Shown here one piece after another: positions 11,131 through 53,776 of a stretch of DNA of 64,000 bases. The notes beneath the pieces are model-generated. The model did no database searches. It had not been told where the DNA came from and saw only the letters and a program-made list of their open reading frames with translations. The translations under genes and the position numbers were made by a program. The stretch spans positions 512,001 through 576,000 of the forward strand of contig CAVSGP010000004.1 in NCBI GenBank assembly GCA_963727505.1, given 5' to 3'. Each line of letters begins with the position of its first letter. Position 1 is the stretch's first letter. Origin of the DNA: an uncultured Trueperaceae bacterium (GTDB lineage Bacteria; Deinococcota; Deinococci; Deinococcales; Trueperaceae).

Positions 11131-13275
11131 TCAGGCGAAGGCCGGCACGTACTCCGCGGGCACCGCTTGGCTGAAAAGGAAACCCTGCCCCTCGTCGCAC
11201 GCGAGGGTGCGAAGCAGCGCGTTCTGCTCGCGCGTCTCGATCCCCTCCGCGGTGACGGTCAGGCGCAGGCTCTTGCCGAGGGCGATGATCGCTCGGATCA
11301 GCTCCACGTCCTCCCCGACCTCGCGACCGCTGAGCCTCCCGACGAAGCTGCGGTCGATCTTCAGACCGTCGAGCGGCATCCCCCGCAACAGCGATAGCGA
11401 CGCGTTCGCCACGCCGAAGTCGTCGAGCGCAACGTGCATGCCCATGCTGCGAAGCTCGTGGAGGTGGGGGTCGGCGGCCTCCAGGGTGCTGGCGCCTGTC
11501 CGTTCGTTGATCTCGATCTCCAGCAGACCGGGGTGCAGGTCGTAGCGGGTGAGCACACCCTGCACCCGGCGCGTGAAGTCCTCGTCCTCCAGCGCCTGCG
11601 GACTGACGTTCACGGCTACGCGACGTGAGGTCCGTTGCTGCTGCCAGCGTTTGGCCTGGGCACAGGCGCGCTCCAGGACCCACTCGAACAGGTCCCCGCC
11701 GAGGCGGGCCTCCTCGGCGAGCGGCACGAAGGCGGCAGGCTTGAGCAATCCGCGCTCCGGGTGCTCCCAGCGCACGAGCGCCTCCACGCTGGTGATCGAT
11801 CCGGTCTGCAGCTCCACGCGCGGCTGGTAGTGGAGGACGAGCTGATCCTCCAGCAACGCCCGCCGCAACTCCTTCTCGAGCCCCGAACGCTCGCGCATGG
11901 CCGCGTCGAACCCCTGCCGGTAGAAGCGGTAGTCGCCGCGTTGGTGTTCCTTGGCATCCTCCAGGGCCATCCGGGCATGGTCGATCAGCTCGGCTGCGCT
12001 GGCCGCGCCCTCCGGGTAGAGCTCGACGCCGATGGTAGCGCTGAGCCGCAACGTGGCACCGCGGTCGTGGAACGGATCGGTCACGGTGGCCCGGATCTTG
12101 TCGAGCACCGGCAGAGCCGCGCCCGGCGCAGGCAGGCGCGACAGCAGCACCGCGAAGGTATCGGCGTCCAACCGGGCCAGGGTGTCGCTGCGACGCAAGT
12201 GCCTGCTCAGGCGCCCCCCGACCTCTTGCAGGACCCGATCGCCGCGGTCCGCCCCGAGCGTCTCGTTGAGGAATCGGAAGTCGTCGAGATCGACGAGCGC
12301 CAGCAGCGCGGCGCCGCCTTCGCGCCGGGTCTGGTAGAGCGCCTGCTGGATCCGGTCCTCGAGGAGGTAGCGGTTGGGCAGCCCGGTGAGGGCGTCGAAG
12401 TGCGCGCCGCGCCACAGTTCGGCGGTCACCTTCCTGTTGGCCGTGACGTCGCGCACGACACCGTATACGCCGCGCACGCCGGCCTCCTGCCCCTCCCAGT
12501 GCACCATGGCGAAGTCCTCCACCCAGAGCACGCGCCCCCCCTTGGTGCGAAGACGGTAGGCATGATGCCGCTCGCGCTGCGCGGCCAGGCTGTGGAGCGA
12601 CGCCTCGAAGGTCTCGCGATCATCGTCCACAACGAGCTCACCAGGCCCCATCGCCAGGACTTCCGCGACCTCGTATCCGGTCACCGCGGAGCACGCCGGA
12701 CTCACCCACGACCAGCGCGCCACACCGTCGTGGTCGAGGAGGAGGGCGTACGCGAACGACGCCCCCTGGCCCTGCATGCGAGCGGCGAGCGCGCTACGGG
12801 CTGCCTCGGCCCCGGCCGCGTGCGTGGAGACGGTCACGTCCCGCTGGAGCACCAGCAAGTGCCGGGGGCGGCCGTCCGGGCCCGGGATCGGCAGGTGCCG
12901 CTGCTCGTTGTAGAACAGCTCGCCGTCCTTGCGGTAGTTGCGGAAGGTGACGGTCGCCGGCAGCCCGCCGTCGAGCGCTTCCTTGATGCGCTCGTTGGCG
13001 TCCTGATCGCTGTCGTCACGCTGCAGGAAGCCCAGGTTGCGGCCCGTCGCCTCTTCGGGTCGGTACCCCGTCAGCTCCCCGAACGCCTCGCTGGCGTGCA
13101 CCACCGGGTGGCCGACCTGGGTCAGGTCGGAGACCGTGAAGCAGGCCTCGCCGAACAGGCGCTGCACCATCTCCACCACTTCCGAGGTCTCCGCCGCAGC
13201 GGATCCCGTGGCCAGCTTCACCAGCGTGGCGCGATCGTTCGTCGCGCTTTCGGCCTTCATGGAACCTGCACCCAT
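11131..13275 (-). CDS. LOV-like PAS / PAS / degenerate GGDEF / EAL protein, probable c-di-GMP phosphodiesterase
   Basis: GRNLGFLQ and RNYRKDG; DADTF at the GGDEF position; EALVRW, DDFG, KIDRSF, AEGIE. Start may be the ATG at 13260. Confidence 0.9.
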   Translation of the reverse strand: MGAGSMKAESATNDRATLVKLATGSAAAETSEVVEMVQRLFGEACFTVSDLTQVGHPVVHASEAFGELTGYRPEEATGRNLGFLQRDDSDQDANERIKEALDGGLPATVTFRNYRKDGELFYNEQRHLPIPGPDGRPRHLLVLQRDVTVSTHAAGAEAARSALAARMQGQGASFAYALLLDHDGVARWSWVSPACSAVTGYEVAEVLAMGPGELVVDDDRETFEASLHSLAAQRERHHAYRLRTKGGRVLWVEDFAMVHWEGQEAGVRGVYGVVRDVTANRKVTAELWRGAHFDALTGLPNRYLLEDRIQQALYQTRREGGAALLALVDLDDFRFLNETLGADRGDRVLQEVGGRLSRHLRRSDTLARLDADTFAVLLSRLPAPGAALPVLDKIRATVTDPFHDRGATLRLSATIGVELYPEGAASAAELIDHARMALEDAKEHQRGDYRFYRQGFDAAMRERSGLEKELRRALLEDQLVLHYQPRVELQTGSITSVEALVRWEHPERGLLKPAAFVPLAEEARLGGDLFEWVLERACAQAKRWQQQRTSRRVAVNVSPQALEDEDFTRRVQGVLTRYDLHPGLLEIEINERTGASTLEAADPHLHELRSMGMHVALDDFGVANASLSLLRGMPLDGLKIDRSFVGRLSGREVGEDVELIRAIIALGKSLRLTVTAEGIETREQNALLRTLACDEGQGFLFSQAVPAEYVPAFA

Positions 13276-13528
13276 CCTCCGTACGGCCCGGTTACCGCCG
13301 CTGGCGGCAACCGGGCGCCGAGGCCACGGACGAACGTCTGCGTCGGGGCTCCCATCCGCCGACCGCTCAACTCCCGTGCCCTCTCATCTCTTCCGAGCCC
13401 GACCGTACCATCTCATGCCCGCCCGATCCGTGACAAATCTCTGACACAGAGGGCGTTCCTGGCGTATAGAACGCGGGCAGGCGGGGGACGCCGGGGCCGT
13501 CCGGCGCACCCGCGCTCCCGGTGCGGCA

Positions 13529-43653: not shown

Positions 43654-46129
43654 CTACGACGTCTCGGTGCGCCAGCGCTTACGTATACGCCGGATGCGCG
43701 CGTTCGCCAACGGCCGGCGAGGATCGTTCGGGGGTAGGTGCCGCCGCGTTTCCTCCCATAGCTCCAGGTCGTCCCCCTGCTGATTGGCCAGGTCGATCAT
43801 GGCATCGGCGTCGCCCGACGCAAGCACCGCCTGCCGGAGACTCTCCTCGAGGTGCTCGCGCAGCTCGACGACGGTCGGCGCCTCGGACTCCGGCAGGAGG
43901 GGGCCGCGATAGAGCTCCAAGGCCGCTTGCACCTTGCCTTCGTGCAACAACTCGAGCACCTTCACGAAGTCGGCCTCGTACGCCTCGGCGATGTGATACG
44001 GAAGCGGTTCGATCGGGATCACCTTGCGCGCACGCGAGATCGTTGCCTTCAGCGTGCTCTTGTTCGCGCGGTCCCCATAGAGCGCCAACGCGAGTTGTTC
44101 GCCCCGGATCCCCTCACGGTTTGCAGCCAGTACCGCGATCAACTCCGCGAACCGCAGGCTGAGCGTCGTCTCACCGTCATTGCCCCACAACGACCGCTTG
44201 CCCAGGAGCCGAATCTTCAGCTTGGGCTCGTCGTTCCTGAACAGCGCCTTCAACTGCACGACTTCGGGCCCGTCACCCCCGAGGAGTAACCAACCCGAGT
44301 CCCCAAGGTCCTTTAGAAAGCGAGCGTTACGTTCCATGAGGGCGTGGGCTTCGTCGGGGCGCCCCTCACGCAGGAAGTGGCAACCAAGATGGATCAACGC
44401 CTGAGCTGCGTAGGCGCCGAAGGGCTTCGAGATGAATTCGTCTGCAGCCTTCTGAAGGAGCGCTTCACCGTCACTCCTGCCCGTTGCCGCTAGAGCACAG
44501 CCAAGTGCCAGTCTGGCCACTCGTTCGTGAGCCGGGGACACCTCTCGCGACATCTCCATCGCCTCCGCAGCGACCTCGACCGCTCTACGCCGCATCCCGA
44601 GAACACCGTAGATTCGAACGAGATCGTTTGCAACCGTCGGAAGCTGAGATCGTGACGCATTCGCTGCAACCAGTTCGTAATAGTGCTTTGCCTCCTCCAC
44701 GTCACCAGCAACCAACGCGAAGTCGCCAAGCGTAGACAGAATCCCCTCTGTCGTCGGTGTTCCGACAAGAGACTTTCGGAATCTGAACTGTCGCGAGGGC
44801 CTGCTCTGCGCTGGCCACAGCGCCGGTCAGCAAGCGAGTGTATGCGGCGAAGTTGACAAGCGTGAGGCGAAGAAGCTCCTCTCTGAGACCGACCGTGTGA
44901 AACTGCCTCAACGCCCATCCTGCCCAGTGCTGCGCACGGCCATAATCTCCAGCTGACAAGTGAGCCAGCGCCATGTCACCTGCTACAGAAACCACGAGCC
45001 TTGGTCGACCAGCACGCTCGCCGTACTCCATGGCTTCTCTGAGAGCCTCAATTGCCGCAGGAATCTGACCGTCGAGAGTGAGTAGGAAACCGAGTGCCGC
45101 CGCGGTTACTGCATTGGGGCGTGCATGGTAGGCCCGCTCAGCCTCAGCGATGGAGCCCGAACGGACATCGATCGTTGCACGAAGCGCCCTAACATTTGGG
45201 GCCTCATGACGTTCCAGGTAGCGATCGACCAATGGCATTAGTGACCGCCAGCGGTTGACTGTTACCGCGGAACTGAACTGCCAGTAAACGACCTTCTCGT
45301 CACGCAAGAGCCAGCTTGGTAGCCCCGATATCGTCCTCCAAAACCGTTCGAACTGGCCAGTGTCAAAGAGGATGTTGCCCGCCTCTTCGACCATCTCTGG
45401 CACTCTCGTTGGAGCATGCCTTGCCGCCAATTCAAAGGCCTCCACCCACTTGCCATTCCTAATTAGCGCATCTACGCCCACACCCGCGTCCCTGGCCGAG
45501 AGTGCACGCACGGCAAGACCCAACTCCTTGGGATCTTCGGGGTCTTCTGGCCAAGCCAGCCCGAGAGCTCGTTCGACCAGAGCAATTGCCCCTCCGGTCT
45601 TCCAAACTGCTGAAACAATAATGCTCTCTTCACACTCGTCCCCGTAGAGATCAAGAGCCTCTTCCCGTGTCAACGCCAGATCGGAAGTCCCAACGGACTT
45701 CCATCCATCGCGCGATTCAAACTCTCCTGAATCGCAGGCGGCCTGCTGAACTAGGAGGTTCGGCGCCCGAACCACGGATGCAATCTCGCTCGCCCATTGC
45801 GGACACTTGTGTGCTTGCGTCAATACGAACGTAATTGGCTCAAGGGAAGGCAGATACGACTCAAGTACGCTCAGGCCATAGGAACCATCTGCACCGGTGC
45901 CGAACAATGGTGCGCCCAAGCCAAACCTGACCGCCTCCGATAACGCATCACCGACGGCAACATCGTCAGAACAATCGACCGCCTCTAGATCCATCCAGAT
46001 TAGTGGCTGTTCCGGCTGGCGTAGGCTTGCAATGACCCTGTTCAATCCCCAATCTTCGTCTGCCAAGACGGCTACAGGCGAGCCTGGCTCCGAGATCATC
46101 GCGCGGACACGGTCGATCCAAGCGTTCAT
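43654..46129 (-). CDS. Degenerate MalT/STAND-like + TPR + C-terminal winged-HTH regulator, one +1 frameshift near 44775
   Basis: ORFs 44702-46141 and 43654-44715 join if one base of TTT 44774-44776 is removed (QIPKSLVGTPTTEGILSTLGDF); GGAGG before ATG 46129; C-terminal LKIRLLG...LYRGPLLP. Confidence 0.75.
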
Positions 46130-46210
46130 GACCTCCTCCATGCCCAGTCTTCCAAGGAAGCCGAATCCGAATGGCGAAGCTCAACTGCTGCCGACTTATG
46201 CTTGGCTGAC

Positions 46211-47392
46211 ATGGAGCTCTCCTCACGCGCGATTGCTCGTAGAGCAAAGACGTTCCTCCGAAACCACGAACTTGGAATATTCGTGCCGGTCTTGCCTGGC
46301 CTGGAGCAGACGGCACTGGATGAAATCGAGGCGCTTGGCCACAATGCAATAAGAACCACTGGCGGAGTATCGCTCAGAGGCAGTCTCGCAACGGTATACG
46401 CAACCAATCTAATGCATCGGACTGGCAACCGGGTTCTCATACGCATCGACAGCTTCCTTGCTCAGAGCTACCCTATGCTCTACGATCACACAAAGAAACT
46501 CCCTTGGGAGATACTTCTAGGCAACTGCCCATATGTTGAGGTGAAGGTTGCCTTCGCACAGTCGCGGTTGCGAAACAAGAGTCACATCCGAGCTGTTGTC
46601 AGAGACGCCATTATTGACCGTTGCAAGCCTCTCGGGCTAGGTCCAGGGTTTGCGACACCAACCGGGGTCACGATCTTCCTACGACTTCATCAGGATAGGT
46701 GCACCATTAGCCTCGACTCGACTGGCACACATCTGCATAAGCGGGGATACCGAGTTGAGGAAGTCGCTGCACCAATTCGCGAGACGACGGCAGCAGGCAT
46801 CCTTTCGCTGGCAGATGCAAGCTCATACCAGGCAATCGTTGATCCATTTTGCGGATCAGGGACATTCTGCATCGAAGCAGAGATGCTTGTTCGAAGGGTC
46901 GCTCCGGGGCTGAAGCGTTCTTTTGCAATTGAACGCACACCGCTTCATTCGGCAGGGACCTATTCTCAAGTGCGGCGGGAAGTAGCTTCTCGCGAAATGC
47001 GTGCGCTCGGAGTTCGCATTCTGGGTAGCGACATTGAACCAAGAGCCGTGGAGTCCGCACATGCTGGACTTGCCCGTGCCAAGTGTTCTATCGCAAGGTT
47101 CCGCGTGTCAGACGCCTTGAACATCAATTTCCAATCGCTCAAGACGACAAGTGAACGAGGGCTGATTGTCGCCAACTTGCCATATGGGAGAAGACTTTCC
47201 ACACCAGCCGAGGTGCAGACCATGCTTGTCGAGTTCAAGGACCATTTGCTGACTCGCGGTGCGGGATGGGACTTTGCTCTCGTCACCGCTCACCCGGACA
47301 TCTTCGCGAACTCAGCACTCATGGTGAAGAGGCAAGTTGGATTCACCAATGGCGGATTGAGGGTGGTGGCGCTGTTGGGTGCTGTGCCTTAG
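46211..47392 (+). CDS. THUMP-domain SAM-dependent RNA methyltransferase (RlmL/YpsC-like)
   Basis: SLDSTGTHLHKRGYR, APIRET, DPFCGSGT, ANLPYG. Confidence 0.85.
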   Translation: MELSSRAIARRAKTFLRNHELGIFVPVLPGLEQTALDEIEALGHNAIRTTGGVSLRGSLATVYATNLMHRTGNRVLIRIDSFLAQSYPMLYDHTKKLPWEILLGNCPYVEVKVAFAQSRLRNKSHIRAVVRDAIIDRCKPLGLGPGFATPTGVTIFLRLHQDRCTISLDSTGTHLHKRGYRVEEVAAPIRETTAAGILSLADASSYQAIVDPFCGSGTFCIEAEMLVRRVAPGLKRSFAIERTPLHSAGTYSQVRREVASREMRALGVRILGSDIEPRAVESAHAGLARAKCSIARFRVSDALNINFQSLKTTSERGLIVANLPYGRRLSTPAEVQTMLVEFKDHLLTRGAGWDFALVTAHPDIFANSALMVKRQVGFTNGGLRVVALLGAVP

Positions 47393-47460
47393 GTCAGAAG
47401 CCGGTTGACGGCGAGCTCTGGCTCTCTCGCAACCTCCCGTCGAACTGTTGTGAACCGTCG

Positions 47461-48549
47461 TCAAGTGCGGTGATAGACAAGAAGTCCTTCAGCGGCGTTC
47501 GCTTCGTGCGTACCAAAGAAGGACGGGCTTCCAGCGCATTCGATCTTTCCGAGGAAATAGAGTCGCTCAAACTCGGCAACAAGCTCGGGATCAAACTGTG
47601 TCCTTGAGCCGTTGCGGACATATTGCAGTGCCTGCCTGGCGGGCATCGGGCTTCGATATGGGCGTTCACTAGTGAGCGCCTCAAATACGTCAACAATCGC
47701 AATTACGCGCGCAAGACGTGGTATCTCCTCCCCTTTGAAGCCAAGCGGGTACCCTAGGCCATCCCACCGTTCGTGGTGAGCACGAACGACATCTGCGATA
47801 GGACGAAATGTGACGGACACTGATGCAAGTAAGTCTGCCCCATATGAGGGATGCCGGCGAATCTCAGCGAACTCGTCCTCGGTCAGTCGGCCACTCTTCA
47901 GAAGGATATATTCGGGAACCGCTATCTTGCCCAGATCATGCAGTCTCGCTGCCCAATAGAGCACGGTCGTCTCTCTTGACGAAATGCCAAGCGCGTGTCC
48001 CATAACGAGCGCATTGCGTGCAACGCGCTCGCAGTGCCCTTGGGTGTGGTGGTCCCGAACCTCAACAGTGTTTGCAAGACTTGCAAGAACTCGTTGATAT
48101 CCTTCGAATTCTGCAACGCCACTTGCGCTCCTTCCCTGATGGCTTGGAGGCACATGTGCACGGGATACTAGCACTGTGGACATGCCTGCGAAGGTAGCGA
48201 ATACGGCACCCTGAAAAGCCCACCACCCAGTACCAGCGAAGGAATCCTGAATCTTCAATAACTGGTGCACTGCGATGGGAGAAACTAGCGCAATTGCGAC
48301 AACACTCGTGGCAAGGGCGCCAAGGACGCCGCCCCAGGCCGCGCCTACCAAAATCGGAAACAACATCGTCTCCGCCATCGCGGCATAACCAAACTCGATC
48401 CCCACGGCCCTGGTTGCAACCAGGAGGATGGCCGGCGCAAGGACGGCGAATGCTATGGCAGCTGAACGAATGCTTGGAAAGCCCGGCTCACGCGACCTCG
48501 TGCCTTGCAGGCGTAGATGCGAAGCCAATCGCCAGAGCGCGCCCCTCAT
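47461..48549 (-). CDS. Membrane-anchored HD-GYP phosphodiesterase
   Basis: About 4 N-terminal TM helices; LHDLGK, HHERWDGLGYP, DVFEALTSERPYR; ATG 48549 preferred over 48657. Confidence 0.88.
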   Translation of the reverse strand: MRGALWRLASHLRLQGTRSREPGFPSIRSAAIAFAVLAPAILLVATRAVGIEFGYAAMAETMLFPILVGAAWGGVLGALATSVVAIALVSPIAVHQLLKIQDSFAGTGWWAFQGAVFATFAGMSTVLVSRAHVPPSHQGRSASGVAEFEGYQRVLASLANTVEVRDHHTQGHCERVARNALVMGHALGISSRETTVLYWAARLHDLGKIAVPEYILLKSGRLTEDEFAEIRRHPSYGADLLASVSVTFRPIADVVRAHHERWDGLGYPLGFKGEEIPRLARVIAIVDVFEALTSERPYRSPMPARQALQYVRNGSRTQFDPELVAEFERLYFLGKIECAGSPSFFGTHEANAAEGLLVYHRT

Positions 48550-48662
48550 TGACTGTCCACCCCTCTGGGTACGCAAACACAGCGTGGTGAGGCGATAATC
48601 TGAGTTGAGCGCGACAAAGAAAAGCCCACGACATACGCCTCCTCTCGGCGTAGTCATAGACT

Positions 48663-48700
48663 AAAAGGCCGGCGCTTATGGACCACATAAACGCCGGCCT
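48663..48700 (-). terminator. Intrinsic terminator of the peptide transcript
   Basis: Minus strand AGGCCGGCGTTTATG-TGGTC-CATAAGCGCCGGCCT followed by TTT. Confidence 0.7.
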
Positions 48701-48779
48701 AGACAGACAAACTCTCAGTCATCTTGTGTCACTACATTATGACTCCGATGTAGCGATACCTAACGCCAGAAGACCGCCT

Positions 48780-48881
48780 TCAGCGTTGCGAGAAGTGCGA
48801 ACCTGCAGAGACAATTGCGGGCAAGCTGGCGACGAGTGCAAACACGATAGCCATGAAGATGCGCTTCCCTGTATTCTTCAT
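48780..48881 (-). CDS. 33-aa secreted propeptide MKNTGKRIFMAIVFALVASLPAIVSA|GSHFSQR (candidate signalling peptide)
   Basis: Translated by hand (below the ORF-track cutoff); GGGAG 4 nt before ATG; basic n-region, hydrophobic h-region, V-S-A cleavage site; own promoter and terminator. Confidence 0.8.
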   Translation of the reverse strand: MKNTGKRIFMAIVFALVASLPAIVSAGSHFSQR

Positions 48882-49127
48882 ATTTCTCCCATCCTCCCGA
48901 AACCCGTTTGCCGGGTAACGACATCTCTTCATCCACGGTCTCCCATACCGAGGATGCGCTTCTCAGGTCTCCCAACCTTGAAGCATTCTTCTGAGTCCAT
49001 CGGACTCAACGACTTGGAGCTGTTGGGGTTCTGTGGTCCAGACTCTCCCTGACTCAGCTCCCATCTCTTCCAACACCCGGGAAATCCCGGTAACCGATCA
49101 GGCCTCCCAACCAAATCGATTGGCGTT

Positions 49128-49156
49128 AGTGTACACACGACAGTGGCCTTCGTCAA
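49128..49156 (-). promoter_or_regulatory. Sigma70-type promoter for the peptide gene
   Basis: TTGACG (49156-49151), 17-nt spacer, TACACT (49133-49128). Confidence 0.75.
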
Positions 49157-49333
49157 GGGAAATCTAGCACTTCACGTGAACGTGTGTTTGCGTATATATG
49201 CTGTCCCCAACAGTGCGGGGCACTTCTGACTGTGGCGTACTTCGTCTAGTGGCCTCGGGGCCGTGTAATAGAATCTAGTGCACAGGAACTGTGCTGGGTA
49301 GGAGGATACCGGCAAATACCGCCGCAGCGATCA

Positions 49334-51005
49334 ATGACGAAAGAAGTCGAGCAGCTCGTTCGCGAAAAGTATCCTGGCGTCCAACTCGATAGTGACGTCC
49401 AAGCATGGGCGTTCCTTGAGGAGTTCGACAAGGGTGTAGAAGCGTACTCCAAGAAGGTCAACCCTACGCCCGCAGATGATCGATGGGTAGGCGTATGTCT
49501 ATTTCAGTTGGTGCGTGACTTGGAGGCGCTGGAAGCACTCTACCGGGCGTTGAACCGGGGTGAGCCGGCTGCTCGCGTAAACATCGCCCATGTGCTCAGA
49601 TTTGTGGAGCGCGCAGAAGACGCATCCGAAGAACTGAGCAAGGTGAAGCCCGAGCAATTCTCGTCTTCATATGACCAAGTCCTGTATTTCAGGGTGTTGA
49701 GCATACACGAGGAAAACAATGGCAACCTAAGGGAGGCACTTAGGTCTGCCGAGGAAGCGTGGCGCCGAATTCAGGGCATACCGGAGTTTGGGCTTCTTGC
49801 CCCCCCCATCCTTGCCCAGCTTGCGACACTTCACGGCAGAATTGGTAGGTCGCAACGAGCGCTCTGGTTCCTCGAACGGGGACTACAACTTACGTCTGGT
49901 GCCGAGCTTCGAAAGCTCCAGCTAAGGCGCGCTTACGTCCTGATCAGTCTCGGCCGTTACCAGGAAGCACAATCTGAACTCGAAGCCCTGGACTTGGCGC
50001 ACGCTCCAGATATCTTCCAGCCGGAACGTCATTGGCTTCTTGGAGAAGTCGCAAGGTCCAGGGGAAACCTCTCAACGGCAATCCACGAATACGAGCAGGC
50101 AATTGAATTGTCGGTTCAATTGCAGATGGGCTACGAGGAGTTCCTCAGGCCGAATCCCGCTCATGGCCATCCTTGGAAACCAGCGGTGACTTCAGTGCGG
50201 CCGCCGAGCATGCTGCACGTGCCCAGACGCTTATCTCCGACAAGTCTGACAGGCTGGAGTTCCGATTTCGGGAAGTCCTCCTGCTTTACTGGCAAAGCAT
50301 ACACACGAGTGAGCACGCCATCGATAGAACTCGATGCGCTGATTGATGAGCTTGGGGCAATGGGCCTCTTGAAGGAGCAGGGCCACGTCCAACTCCACAA
50401 AGCAGAGATCCTCCGTGTCGCCGGAGGCGCCTTCGAAGTTGAGCTTGATAAGCTTCAGGCACTAAGCGTTACACTTCAGAATCCGGCGTTCCTAGCGCCT
50501 GAATGGTCGCTACTGCATGCGCTTGAGGAAGTTGCCAGGCGAACTCATCCGCGCATTGCCGGTCGAGCGCATAGCGCGCTTCGGATTGCTACGTTGGGCC
50601 AAGAGCTCACTTGAACTAGATTCGAGGCCAGTCAACATCCCACTCCGCAAGGGCGTCGAAGTTCTTGCGTACTTCCTCGAAAACAAGGCCGTCACCCTCA
50701 AACAACTCCTCGCCGAGGTCTTCCCCGACGACAAACCCCGGAGCGCAAAGTCGTACTTCCACCAGTTCCGCCACCAGCTTCGAGAGAATGTGGAGGGGCT
50801 CGAGATCGAATACGACGGAGAGTCCAAGATGTACCGACTCAAGAGCGAGATCGACATCGTTTGGGACGTGTCGGAACTCCGCGCCGGCCGGATCATGGGT
50901 AAGACCGGGCTCTTCTTGCCGAGTTCTGGCAACGACTGGGCGCTCGCCGTCGATCGATCCTTGGATCCCTCCCGGGAGGCGGTCGGAGTCCTCGAGGTGG
51001 TCTGA
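49334..51005 (+). CDS. TPR + C-terminal winged-HTH (SARP/OmpR-like) regulator, four +1 frameshifts
   Basis: TPR-like helices (LISLGRYQEAQSELE, GNLSTAIHEYEQAIEL); C-terminal LRKGVEVLAYFLE...LLAEVFPD...YFHQFRHQLRE in ORF 50517-51005; about 555 aa when repaired. Confidence 0.75.
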
Positions 51006-51049
51006 AACAGCACCGCAGGCGGGCCACCGCCTGTGCTATTCTTGTTTCG

Positions 51050-51114
51050 ACGGAAGAGATGGTGGTTGGGAGATCCCGGAGCGGCGGTTGGGAGCCACAA
51101 GCTCCGGGTTTTTC
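51050..51114 (+). ncRNA. Candidate G-rich sRNA (or 3' UTR element of the TPR gene)
   Basis: TG-c-TATTCT at 51034-51042; CGGAAGAGATGG and two GGTTGGGAG; stem CCCGGAGC/GCTCCGGG followed by TTTTT. Confidence 0.45.
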
Positions 51115-51180
51115 TGTGCCGTTGGGCGTTCGCTTCCAGAACCGCGAGCCGATCCCATGCCGACGGCCCGCCTGTCGGGG

Positions 51181-51214
51181 CTGTAAGAATCCTGTAAGAA
51201 TGCCTGGCTATACT
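51181..51214 (+). promoter_or_regulatory. Promoter with tandem direct repeats upstream of the -10 box
   Basis: CTGTAAGAAT at 51181 and 51192 (11-bp period), TATACT at 51209-51214. Confidence 0.65.
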
Positions 51215-51219
51215 CAAGT

Positions 51220-51307
51220 CGTGGACCTGAGGTAACTCTCCCAGTACCTCTTCCCATCTCTTCCGAACAACGGGCTCCGCGCCTCCCACGCGGAGTCCAA
51301 CTTTTTT
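51220..51307 (+). ncRNA. Candidate C/U-rich sRNA
   Basis: Follows the -10 box; CTCTCCCAGTACCTCTTCCCATCTCTTCCG; hairpin GGGCTCCGCG-CCTCCCA-CGCGGAGTCC then AAC-TTTTTT. Confidence 0.55.
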
Positions 51308-51538
51308 GGGCCCCTGCGATACAGGGGCGCGATGCACCGGGCCGTAGCATTACAGCCAGCATCGTGTGCTGACCCGTGCTCCGCGCGGAATATGGCGGGA
51401 ATATGGCGGTTCGGTACGGGCTGTGCAGCGACCCTCAACGACCGCGCTGTCGTACCGCATTTGCTTGCGGGGGACCCCGAAAGTGTGTTAAAAAGGGTAG
51501 TTGCCAGCTTACCCAAATCCGAGGAGGAAGCCCATTTC

Positions 51539-53776
<2,238 letters not shown>

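Follow-up and report, generated by a model that had tools for sequence, protein, structure and literature searches.

The C-rich (UCCC) loops of RNAIII and of the RsaE/RoxS/FsrA-type small RNAs (sRNAs) pair with Shine-Dalgarno regions, and RNAIII, ~500 nt long, is the RNA arm of the agr peptide system, where it is directly activated by AgrA. Here we describe a C-rich sRNA unit of 87 nt at positions 51221-51307 (+) of a 64,000-nt stretch from an uncultured Trueperaceae bacterium (Deinococcota; GenBank assembly GCA_963727505.1, contig CAVSGP010000004.1, positions 512,001 to 576,000), called the window below. Regulatory RNAs of the Deinococcota are barely charted; judged by title and abstract, no relevant paper was found on Truepera small RNAs or on RRNPP-type systems among relatives of Deinococcus. 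Among described RNAs the closest in design are LhrC1-5 of Listeria monocytogenes. The LhrC report (PMC4132741) describes a multicopy family in which loop A, the linker and the terminator loop carry one UCCC motif each; these pair with G-rich GGGAG sequences upstream of the start codon; transcription needs the OmpR-family regulator LisR, and the same text names RNAIII and the RsaE/RoxS/FsrA-type RNAs among C-rich sRNAs. Bacillus subtilis has a sponge RNA, RosA, complementary to the C-rich regions of RoxS, according to PMC8216469. Arbitrium (aimR-aimP-aimX) and the RRNPP systems are described in PMC6536502, PMC9232636, PMC10075063 and PMC9765709 as systems of Firmicutes and their mobile elements.

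Our analysis favors the view that the Trueperaceae sRNA is a trans-acting base-pairing RNA from a multicopy family confined to Trueperaceae, which would act on the mRNA of a putative signalling peptide, on a G-rich small RNA encoded next door, and on the mRNA of a PAS-GGDEF-EAL protein; we put the probability of this at about 0.72. Conservation, structure, distribution, complementarity and synteny were computed, while we infer the transcript ends, the direction of regulation, the sponge role of the G-rich RNA and the identity of the protein that binds the promoter box; gene starts and transcription starts were placed from sequence throughout. The genome holding the window (3.26 Mb, 70% GC, 97% complete) is coded G000, its relatives G002, G003 and so on, and genera g10, g15 and the like.

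The preliminary description, made from the letters of the window, had proposed an ~87-nt unit with a -10 box and a terminator whose hairpin loop is CCUCCCA, and all coordinates it gave for the unit and its matches agree with the sequence. The -10 box, TATACT, lies at 51209-51214 (+) and is present as TATACT or TAnnnT in 12 aligned relatives; from its position the RNA start is placed near G51221. The predicted RNA opens with a short helix (GUGG/CCAU), followed by hairpin 1 (51229-51250; stem GAGGUA/UACCUC, loop ACUCUCCCAG) and the linker UUCCCAUCUCUUCCGAACAAC (51251-51271). The terminator reads GGGCTCCGCG-CCTCCCA-CGCGGAGTCC and then T6; a scan tool places its hairpin, with the RNA loop CCUCCCA, at 51272-51298, and the U6 occupies 51302-51307. 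A 96-nt stretch folds at -35.7 kcal/mol (z = -4.5), equalled by none of 200 shuffles. A DNA search of 41 relatives recovered the unit from 12, every one of the same family, and in an alignment of 12 sequences from seven genera conservation spans the promoter box to the U run and ends there, keeping promoter, hairpins and terminator. RNAalifold assigned 20 pairs to these 12 aligned sequences, six of them with compensatory changes. Over 52 family copies (49 distinct), both sides have changed in 16 of the 20 pairs, and paired cells make up 94.6%, compared with 83.4% in shuffles; none of 500 shuffles reached any of these measures. The motif YCCC is found in loop 1 of 44 copies, in the linker of 46 and in the terminator loop of all 52. 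By these comparisons, 51221-51307 appears to be a discrete, conserved and structured sRNA-like unit.

The Rfam and Infernal search that the preliminary description suggested returned no known family: none of the 4227 models of Rfam 15 matched the 64-kb window at its gathering score. At E<=10 within 48600-51600, only ar14 (19.3 bits vs. a gathering score of 58.8) and FsrA (15.4 vs. 80) fell on the sRNA. The Alphaproteobacterial ar14 (RF02344), the best near-match, has tandem hairpins with CCUCC(U)CCC loops and aligns over both loops, but at 19.3 bits and E = 1.2 the Trueperaceae sRNA is not a member. Our own covariance model, R1, which scores the unit at 106.8 bits, detected a Trueperaceae-wide family, with matches in 92 of the 128 Trueperaceae genomes, spread over 27 of 36 genera, at one to six copies per genome; G000 is counted here, as is a match in G118, an unpublished genome. 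Sampled across the order, R1 matched 26 of 36 Trueperaceae genomes and none of 114 genomes from four sister families. Among named public records, 42 loose pattern matches were obtained and 27 confirmed by R1, all labelled Trueperaceae, Deinococcota or unclassified except for one bin labelled Ferruginibacter; the 15 pattern matches in other phyla were not confirmed. The sRNA is a new family, absent from Rfam, with a familiar way of working. G000 itself has a second, divergent copy on contig C9 (353803-353878, +; 39.9 bits), with loop GCUCCCCCAGC, linker CCACCAUCUCCUCUCUU and terminator loop CCCCCCA behind a GTAAGA/GTCAGC box, and most genomes of the genus have its equivalent (~39 bits).

Three stretches complementary to the sRNA had been reported, each said to be intergenic and correctly oriented for pairing. 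The word TCCCATCTCTTCC is on the plus strand both in the sRNA (51252-51264) and at 49059-49071, which puts its complement into a minus-strand peptide mRNA. Likewise, CATCTCTTCCGA on the plus strand at 13385-13396 puts its complement into the minus-strand leader of a GGDEF/EAL gene, and CGGAAGAGATGG, the reverse complement of an sRNA word, is on the plus strand at 51051-51062. With at most one mismatch, the 11-mer CCATCTCTTCC has five matches in the window vs. 0.98 expected, a number that none of 100 shuffles reached; exact copies number four in the 3.26-Mb genome, three of these within 2.2 kb at the locus. The 10-mer GGAAGAGATG occurs five times beyond the sRNA locus, namely at the three reported sites and twice within coding sequence (Glu-Glu-Met codons). 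The word matches exceed chance. All three sites sit in conserved non-coding elements, and at each of them the G-rich strand lies in the predicted transcript, consistent with the reported orientation. The match at 51051-51062, however, is not loose intergenic RNA; it forms the 5' end of another conserved unit, which has its own predicted promoter and terminator.

The peptide mRNA is predicted to start from a sigma-70-like promoter, TTGACG-17-TACACT (49128-49156, -), the only such match in 48600-51600 and one kept in relatives. Its leader of ~240 nt (48882-49122, -) has five to six conserved G-rich motifs, which in G000 read GGUUGGGAGGCC, GGAAGAGAUGGGA (49059-49071), GGGAG, GGUUGGGAGACC, GGUAUGGGAGACC and UUUCGGGAGGAUGGGAGA (48885-48902), the last holding the Shine-Dalgarno sequence. 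In a 10-genome leader alignment (A10) the conserved blocks are exactly the G-rich words and the surrounding stems vary; the consensus blocks are GGUUGGGAGGCC, GGAAGAG..UGGGAG, GGGAG, GGUUGGGAGACC, GGU(A/U)UGGGAGACC and, in the Shine-Dalgarno region, CGGGAGGAUGGGA. Of 13 leaders, 11 have the upstream site (49059-49071) and 12 the Shine-Dalgarno site. The latter, UUUCGGGAGGAUGGGAGA in G000, ends 3 nt 5' of the peptide AUG, such that the sRNA is complementary to the G-rich ribosome-binding region of a putative target mRNA. The open reading frame (ORF) that follows (48780-48881, -; 33 codons, MKNTGKRIFMAIVFALVASLPAIVSAGSHFSQR) would encode a precursor with a signal-peptide-like N-terminus and a variable C-terminal heptapeptide, and a 15-pair terminator stem followed by TTTT ends the predicted transcript (48666-48700, -). 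The ORF was found in all 13 regulator-bearing contexts compared, and a regex found it at six of 10 further regulator loci. Across relatives the product has 33-35 aa, with MKNTGKRIF, a hydrophobic stretch and SA/G in common and the last seven residues varying (alignment A9). This corresponds to a putative pro-peptide pattern MKNTGKRIF...SA|G-x-H-x-S-Q-R, with heptapeptides such as GSHFSQR, GLHFSQR, GATYSQR, GVSMIKR and GQHIGAR; secretion and processing of the peptide are predicted features.

The match at 51051-51062 belongs to a small RNA unit of ~66 nt, GACGGAAGAGAUGGUGGUUGGGAGAUCCCGGAGCGGCGGUUGGGAGCCACAAGCUCCGGGUUUUU (51049-51114, +), in which promoter and terminator are conserved (alignments A4 and A7). 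It lies between the stop codon of the regulator gene described below and the sRNA promoter, ~100 nt upstream of the sRNA. Its extended -10 box, TGcTATTCT (51034-51042, +), is kept as TGTGnTAnnCT in eight of nine aligned relatives. The G-rich words are GGAAGAGAUGG at 51052-51062 and UUGGGAG at 51066-51072, and a terminator stem (51075-51082 with 51101-51108) presents UUGGGAG in its loop ahead of a U run. A second covariance model, R2, detected this RNA in 13 of 128 Trueperaceae genomes from five genera, always in single copy, and all 12 R2 matches that we compared are directly downstream of the regulator gene. This position is also kept in G099, G101 and G106, whose C-rich sRNA gene lies in another part of the genome. 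The complementarity of the G-rich RNA to the sRNA covers 11 perfectly matched nt of the linker as well as both loops. Judged from these features it is a candidate sponge or antagonist of the C-rich sRNA; alternatively, it could be part of the 3' untranslated region of the regulator mRNA. Like RosA, it is a second RNA complementary to the C-rich regions of an sRNA, which it would titrate. It differs from RosA in its place, ~100 nt upstream of the sRNA and right behind a receptor gene, and in that its role is proposed from sequence alone.

The third site, UCGGAAGAGAUG (13385-13396, -), is at the predicted 5' end of the mRNA of a PAS-PAS-GGDEF-EAL gene (11131-13260, -; Pfam PAS, GGDEF, EAL). The leader is kept in the nine loci of the genus that we inspected; 10 were found, the tenth beginning at a contig end. 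Right after an extended -10 box, TGGTAnnnT, seven of the nine carry CGGAAGAG(A)UGGGAGG, that is GGAAGAG..GGG, and the other two carry the variant CGGACGAGGUGGGAGG (site form GGACGAGGUGGGAGG); a GGCGG(A/U)UGGGAGCC hairpin comes next. The promoter of this gene has, at 13430-13445 (-), a genus-conserved GTCAGA-N5-GTCAC repeat related to the sRNA promoter box; its distance from the -10 box exceeds that of the sRNA box by about one helical turn. The sRNA and its GGDEF-EAL target may be co-regulated.

Pairing energies were calculated by cofolding, and a full-length duplexfold of sRNA and leader was dropped because it ignores intramolecular structure. At the upstream leader site ddG was -28.0 kcal/mol (0 of 100 shuffles equal), at the peptide Shine-Dalgarno site -20.1 (shuffles -10.3+/-3.8; 2 of 100 equal), at the G-rich RNA -21.1 (-9.3+/-3.7; 0 of 100) and at the GGDEF-EAL 5' end -21.8 (-12.8+/-4.4; 4 of 100), with shuffle means of -9 to -13 across the four sites. 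The pairing partners also vary together between clades: CCCAUCUCUUCC pairs with GGAAGAGAUGGG in G000, G003 and G006, CCCACCCUCUUCC with GGAAGAGGGUGGG in G020, GUCCC with GGGAC in G024, and AUCCCA with UGGGAU in G086. The G020 leader forms a duplex of -40.2 kcal/mol with its cognate sRNA vs. -30.5 with genus-1 sRNAs, and the G024 leader one of -30.5 vs. ~-23 with others. Genome scans for GGAGGATGGG and CGGAAG..TGGG returned mostly coding DNA and no convincing new target. As a separate observation, GGAGGATGGG occurs in G000 as a tandem pair 16 nt apart (GGAGGATGGGTTGCGCGGAGGATGGG; C2:237118-237143, -), a G-rich element that could pair with the sRNA.

In comparison with LhrC, the Trueperaceae family is likewise multicopy, has YCCC motifs in loop 1, linker and terminator loop, and has GGGAG-type sites in its putative targets. 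The motif positions are those of LhrC, as the YCCC counts over the 52 copies and the covarying helices indicate. No sequence or Rfam relationship connects the two, however, and they come from different phyla; the Trueperaceae linker also adds a long conserved CUCUUCCGAA. There is no homology to LhrC, and the motif-for-motif match is therefore a clean case of convergent sRNA design. The targets differ as well, here the mRNAs of a signalling peptide and of a cyclic di-GMP (c-di-GMP) enzyme, with a dedicated G-rich partner RNA encoded next door. RNAIII, RsaE, RoxS and FsrA resemble the Trueperaceae sRNA in C-rich pairing but not by descent (FsrA, 15.4 bits vs. 80), and direct control by the peptide receptor is not supported here.

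The regulator gene (49334-51005, +; Pfam TPR, NNH6) encodes a predicted Rap/NprR-like TPR sensor with a C-terminal SARP/OmpR-type winged helix. In G000 it is frameshifted by 1-2-nt indels at 50146-50151, 50187, 50324 and 50607 relative to the G004 orthologue, none of them in a homopolymer, and the neighbouring genes are intact; the G000 copy would be either a pseudogene or a local assembly fault. In G004 the gene is intact at 554 aa. AlphaFold2 modelled the N-terminal 404 residues with a pLDDT of 92.9, and Foldseek gave the Rap and NprR receptors as the closest overall folds, with TM-scores (TMq 0.62-0.67) of 0.66-0.67 for RapJ (4gyo), 0.67 for RapF (4i9c), 0.63-0.66 for phi3T Rap and 0.62 for NprR (5dbk), compared with 0.30-0.56 for generic TPR proteins. 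The model is thus consistent with a peptide-binding TPR domain of the Rap/NprR/PlcR type. Nearest to the C-terminal 150 residues (pLDDT 88.9) are the AfsR (E 1.9e-4, TMq 0.68) and EmbR DNA-binding domains, with OmpR/PhoB-type winged helices next. An N-terminal helix-turn-helix (HTH), as in RRNPP regulators, was not found; the DNA-binding domain is the C-terminal SARP/OmpR winged helix, and the homologues of genus g10 have none. Those homologues (G130, G131, G136, G137) are TPR-only, as Rap is (402 aa in G131), and are still flanked by a peptide gene with a G-rich leader and by the sRNA. The TPR part diverges faster (35-67% identity) than the winged helix (36-90%, and 66-90% in most genera) in tblastn searches with the G000 pieces, which together with the heptapeptide variation looks like pherotype diversification.

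The regulator is present in 62 of the 128 Trueperaceae genomes, which represent 22 of 36 genera. From a comparison of the two match tables by hand, R1 matches 61 of the 62 regulator-positive genomes vs. 31 of the 66 regulator-negative ones. The sRNA follows the regulator on the same strand at a distance of 78-716 nt in 23 of the 62 genomes (11 genera) and at 1.2-6.2 kb in five more; in the remaining 34, including the near-complete G012, G058, G059 and G060, the two are on different contigs or far apart. Gene order is kept in several genera as HD-GYP (-), peptide (-), regulator (+), the G-rich RNA where present, sRNA (+) and rpsA (+). By synteny and co-occurrence, the sRNA is strongly linked to the peptide/TPR locus. 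The arrangement recalls arbitrium and the RRNPP systems in that a TPR receptor, its fold nearest to Rap and NprR, is adjacent to a small ORF for a putative secreted pro-peptide with a diversifying mature part and to a short downstream unit. In contrast to those systems, the winged helix is C-terminal rather than an N-terminal HTH, and the host belongs to the Deinococcota rather than to Firmicutes or their phages. The preliminary description had cited the aimX RNA as the output of arbitrium, a view now dated: PMC10769878 and bioRxiv 10.1101/2025.11.23.689978 describe AimX as a small protein, whereas the downstream unit in Trueperaceae is without an ORF.

The sRNA promoter has a single conserved element besides the -10 box, an activator-type direct repeat, GTAAGA-N5-GTAAGA (51183-51199, +), with a period of 11 bp; 9 nt separate its end from the -10 box, and it is nearly invariant across genera (alignment A2). 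The box followed by 9-10 nt and then TAnnnT is found at the sRNA, at its paralogue and at nine other G000 promoters. AfsR/OmpR/PhoB-class proteins bind 11-bp-period direct repeats abutting the -10 box, and the element has the predicted features of a class II site for OmpR/PhoB/SARP proteins, with 11-bp direct repeats in place of the -35 region and 8-10 bp to the -10 box. G000 has eight exact copies, and a degenerate pattern gave 20 matches vs. five for a reversed control. GTAAGA-N5-GTAAG boxes precede the sRNA paralogue and genes for RR-HD-GYP, CheY-like, GGDEF-EAL, two pilin and HAD phosphatase proteins (C2:24234, C4:126372, C5:222972, C5:236587, C6:42006, C9:145519, C9:601040, C9:737513, C9:738398, C9:353745), a candidate c-di-GMP and pilus regulon with a putative winged-helix activator. 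The box also resembles the E. coli Pho box consensus; a Pho box was rejected, the downstream genes being of the c-di-GMP, pilin and CheY types and not phosphate genes. A regulator-specific operator was sought by eye in the intergenic region between peptide and regulator, where the conserved words ATATACG and GGATTCTAATACACGG form no assignable repeat.

Several observations weigh against a trans-acting RNA with these three partners. When the 22-nt linker was scanned genome-wide for duplex energy (108,660 windows), the leader site scored -29.5 kcal/mol, a value that ~12 other sites equalled or surpassed, and the GGDEF site, at -27.5, ranked ~45th; the scan is dominated by G-rich coding DNA and does not discriminate among targets in a 70%-GC genome. 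The co-variation is partial: in five of 13 leaders (G002, G004, G017, G050 and G086) some non-cognate sRNA equals or beats the cognate one. Cofolding at the Shine-Dalgarno sequence of the GGDEF-EAL mRNA was no better than with shuffles (32 of 100 equal), and because of this an effect on that mRNA could go in either direction. The sRNA lies 230 nt upstream of rpsA, which is found at most 1.5 kb downstream in 14 of 31 sRNA loci, and a cis role there is possible. The relatives are kin, and tallies across genomes overstate their independence. Finally, the transcription of the sRNA and the ends of the transcript are themselves read from the DNA.

In the strongest competing explanation, the peptide/TPR regulator controls transcription of the sRNA directly, as its output: the winged helix would bind the GTAAGA repeats and switch the sRNA on or off according to peptide level, much as in agr/RNAIII or arbitrium. 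We consider this possible, with roughly one chance in three. 

The proximity of sRNA and regulator on one strand (0.08-0.7 kb in the 23 genomes), their co-occurrence and the AfsR/EmbR/OmpR-like winged helix speak for it, the sRNA box having the geometry expected for that class. The box is not specific to the locus, however, given its eight exact copies and the other gene classes behind it in G000, and it is abundant (3-17 copies vs. 0-2 in the control) in genomes that lack both the regulator and the sRNA. In genus g15 the sRNA is behind a triple box and the regulator was detected in none of five genomes; in G131 (genus g10) the homologue next to the sRNA, of 402 aa, stops behind its TPR part and the sRNA retains its box; 31 regulator-negative genomes have the sRNA; and in G000 the regulator is frameshifted with sRNA and partners intact. 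Because the box occurs and persists without the regulator, or without its DNA-binding domain, another family-wide factor must, on this pattern, bind it, and the regulator may share it. The earlier proposal that the sRNA is the effector of the peptide/TPR system is supported in part, by the linkage (61 of 62 by co-occurrence, 23 of 62 by adjacency); the box, shared and persisting without the regulator, weighs against an output role. The evidence is explained at least as well if the sRNA governs translation of the peptide precursor and in this way acts on the peptide system.

Other explanations address the G-rich words or the unit itself. CsrA targets and sponges show multi-motif layouts, and the UUGGGAG hairpin motifs might be sites for an RNA-binding protein in the manner of CsrA/CsrB, with the leader as target, the G-rich RNA as sponge and the C-rich RNA secondary; the leader displays five to six GGGAG-type motifs, either in the loops of hairpins or unpaired, and the 66-nt RNA has two to three more, which would suit this. 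We think it improbable, as the continuous 12-18-nt complementarity to the sRNA linker, well past the GGGAG core, and its clade-level co-variation go unexplained, and no CsrA family match was found in G000 (97% complete) by a search that did match the control genomes. No gene for Hfq was found in G000 either, and the lack of both fits chaperone-independent C-rich sRNAs. S1 binds pyrimidine-rich single strands, and the S1 encoded here is unusually long (745 aa), which together with the nearness of rpsA could make the unit a cis-acting terminator or attenuator of the rpsA leader, or a pyrimidine-rich S1 decoy. This is very improbable in our view: genomes have one to six sRNA copies, 17 of the 31 loci are without a nearby rpsA, as are the flanks of the second G000 copy, the unit has its own conserved promoter and strong terminator, and the conserved complementary sites elsewhere would be left unexplained. 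That the shared words are DNA-level repeats without RNA-RNA function, either degenerate sRNA gene copies or protein-binding sites, is hardly credible. It could draw on the copy at 49059-49071, which is on the same DNA strand as the sRNA, and on weak R1 matches at 49029-49118 (+, 10.2 bits, E 0.73), 48843-48910 (+, 7.2 bits) and 51054-51110 (-, 6.6 bits), but these are not significant, the promoter, ORF or terminator of each conserved unit puts the G-rich strand into RNA, and from clade to clade the sites change along with the sRNA, also where its gene is in another part of the genome. The 48.9-49.1 kb and 51.05-51.11 kb regions were rejected as decayed sRNA copies, with R1 insignificant and transcription signals conserved on the opposite strand.

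For the trans-acting sRNA we propose the following scheme. An activator on the promoter box would cause the sRNA to be made, the -35 region being replaced by GTAAGA-N5-GTAAGA in the layout of OmpR/PhoB/SARP-type activators. The three YCCC motifs, in the loop of hairpin 1, in the putatively single-stranded linker UUCCCAUCUCUUCCGAA and in the terminator loop, could then pair with GGAAGAG..UGGGAG or UUGGGAG sites, and the exposed CUCUUCCGAA would, with these motifs, seed pairing with the peptide leader. That leader would offer a high-affinity site and a second site over the Shine-Dalgarno sequence, where pairing would block translation and lower the amount of pro-peptide. The G-rich RNA, presumably made from a constitutive promoter, and the extra G-rich motifs of the leader would buffer free sRNA and set a threshold. 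The same sRNA would act on the GGDEF-EAL mRNA, whose promoter has a related repeat, in a feed-forward arrangement, and most likely it would couple the RRNPP-like peptide module to c-di-GMP turnover post-transcriptionally. A wider picture, in which an RRNPP-like module outside Firmicutes uses an RNA titration and threshold circuit to set peptide output, relays it to c-di-GMP enzymes and pili, and has a receptor whose winged helix competes or cooperates with a family-wide response regulator at the GTAAGA boxes, is speculative, and as a whole we regard it as somewhat unlikely; sharing of boxes of this sort would explain how the box outlives the receptor.

R1 provides a covariance model for a new family-wide sRNA. 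Three conserved partners, one of them a candidate sponge, are rare for a purely computational prediction. The setting is unusual in combining a dedicated G-rich partner with an RRNPP-like module in Deinococcota, and that module looks like the first of the Rap/NprR type outside Firmicutes; its links to c-di-GMP turnover and pilin genes concern surface and social behaviour, and a new RNA-based signalling circuit is now open to testing.

The surroundings of the locus have features of their own. An HD-GYP (HD_5) gene (47461-48657, -) is directly downstream of the peptide terminator and syntenic in eight of 19 contexts, a further link to c-di-GMP. The gene for a second TPR protein (479 aa; weak match to TPR_12) lies 3 kb upstream (44702-46141, -). 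The region 44000-51300 has 52-58% GC, compared with 70% for the genome; as the order of the locus is kept in several genera, its low GC seems to belong to the locus itself and not to mark a recent import. Downstream, rpsA (51539-53776, +) encodes an S1 whose S1 domains are preceded by a long N-terminal extension, acidic and of low complexity, and a conserved word, CGATACAG, lies between the sRNA terminator and this gene.

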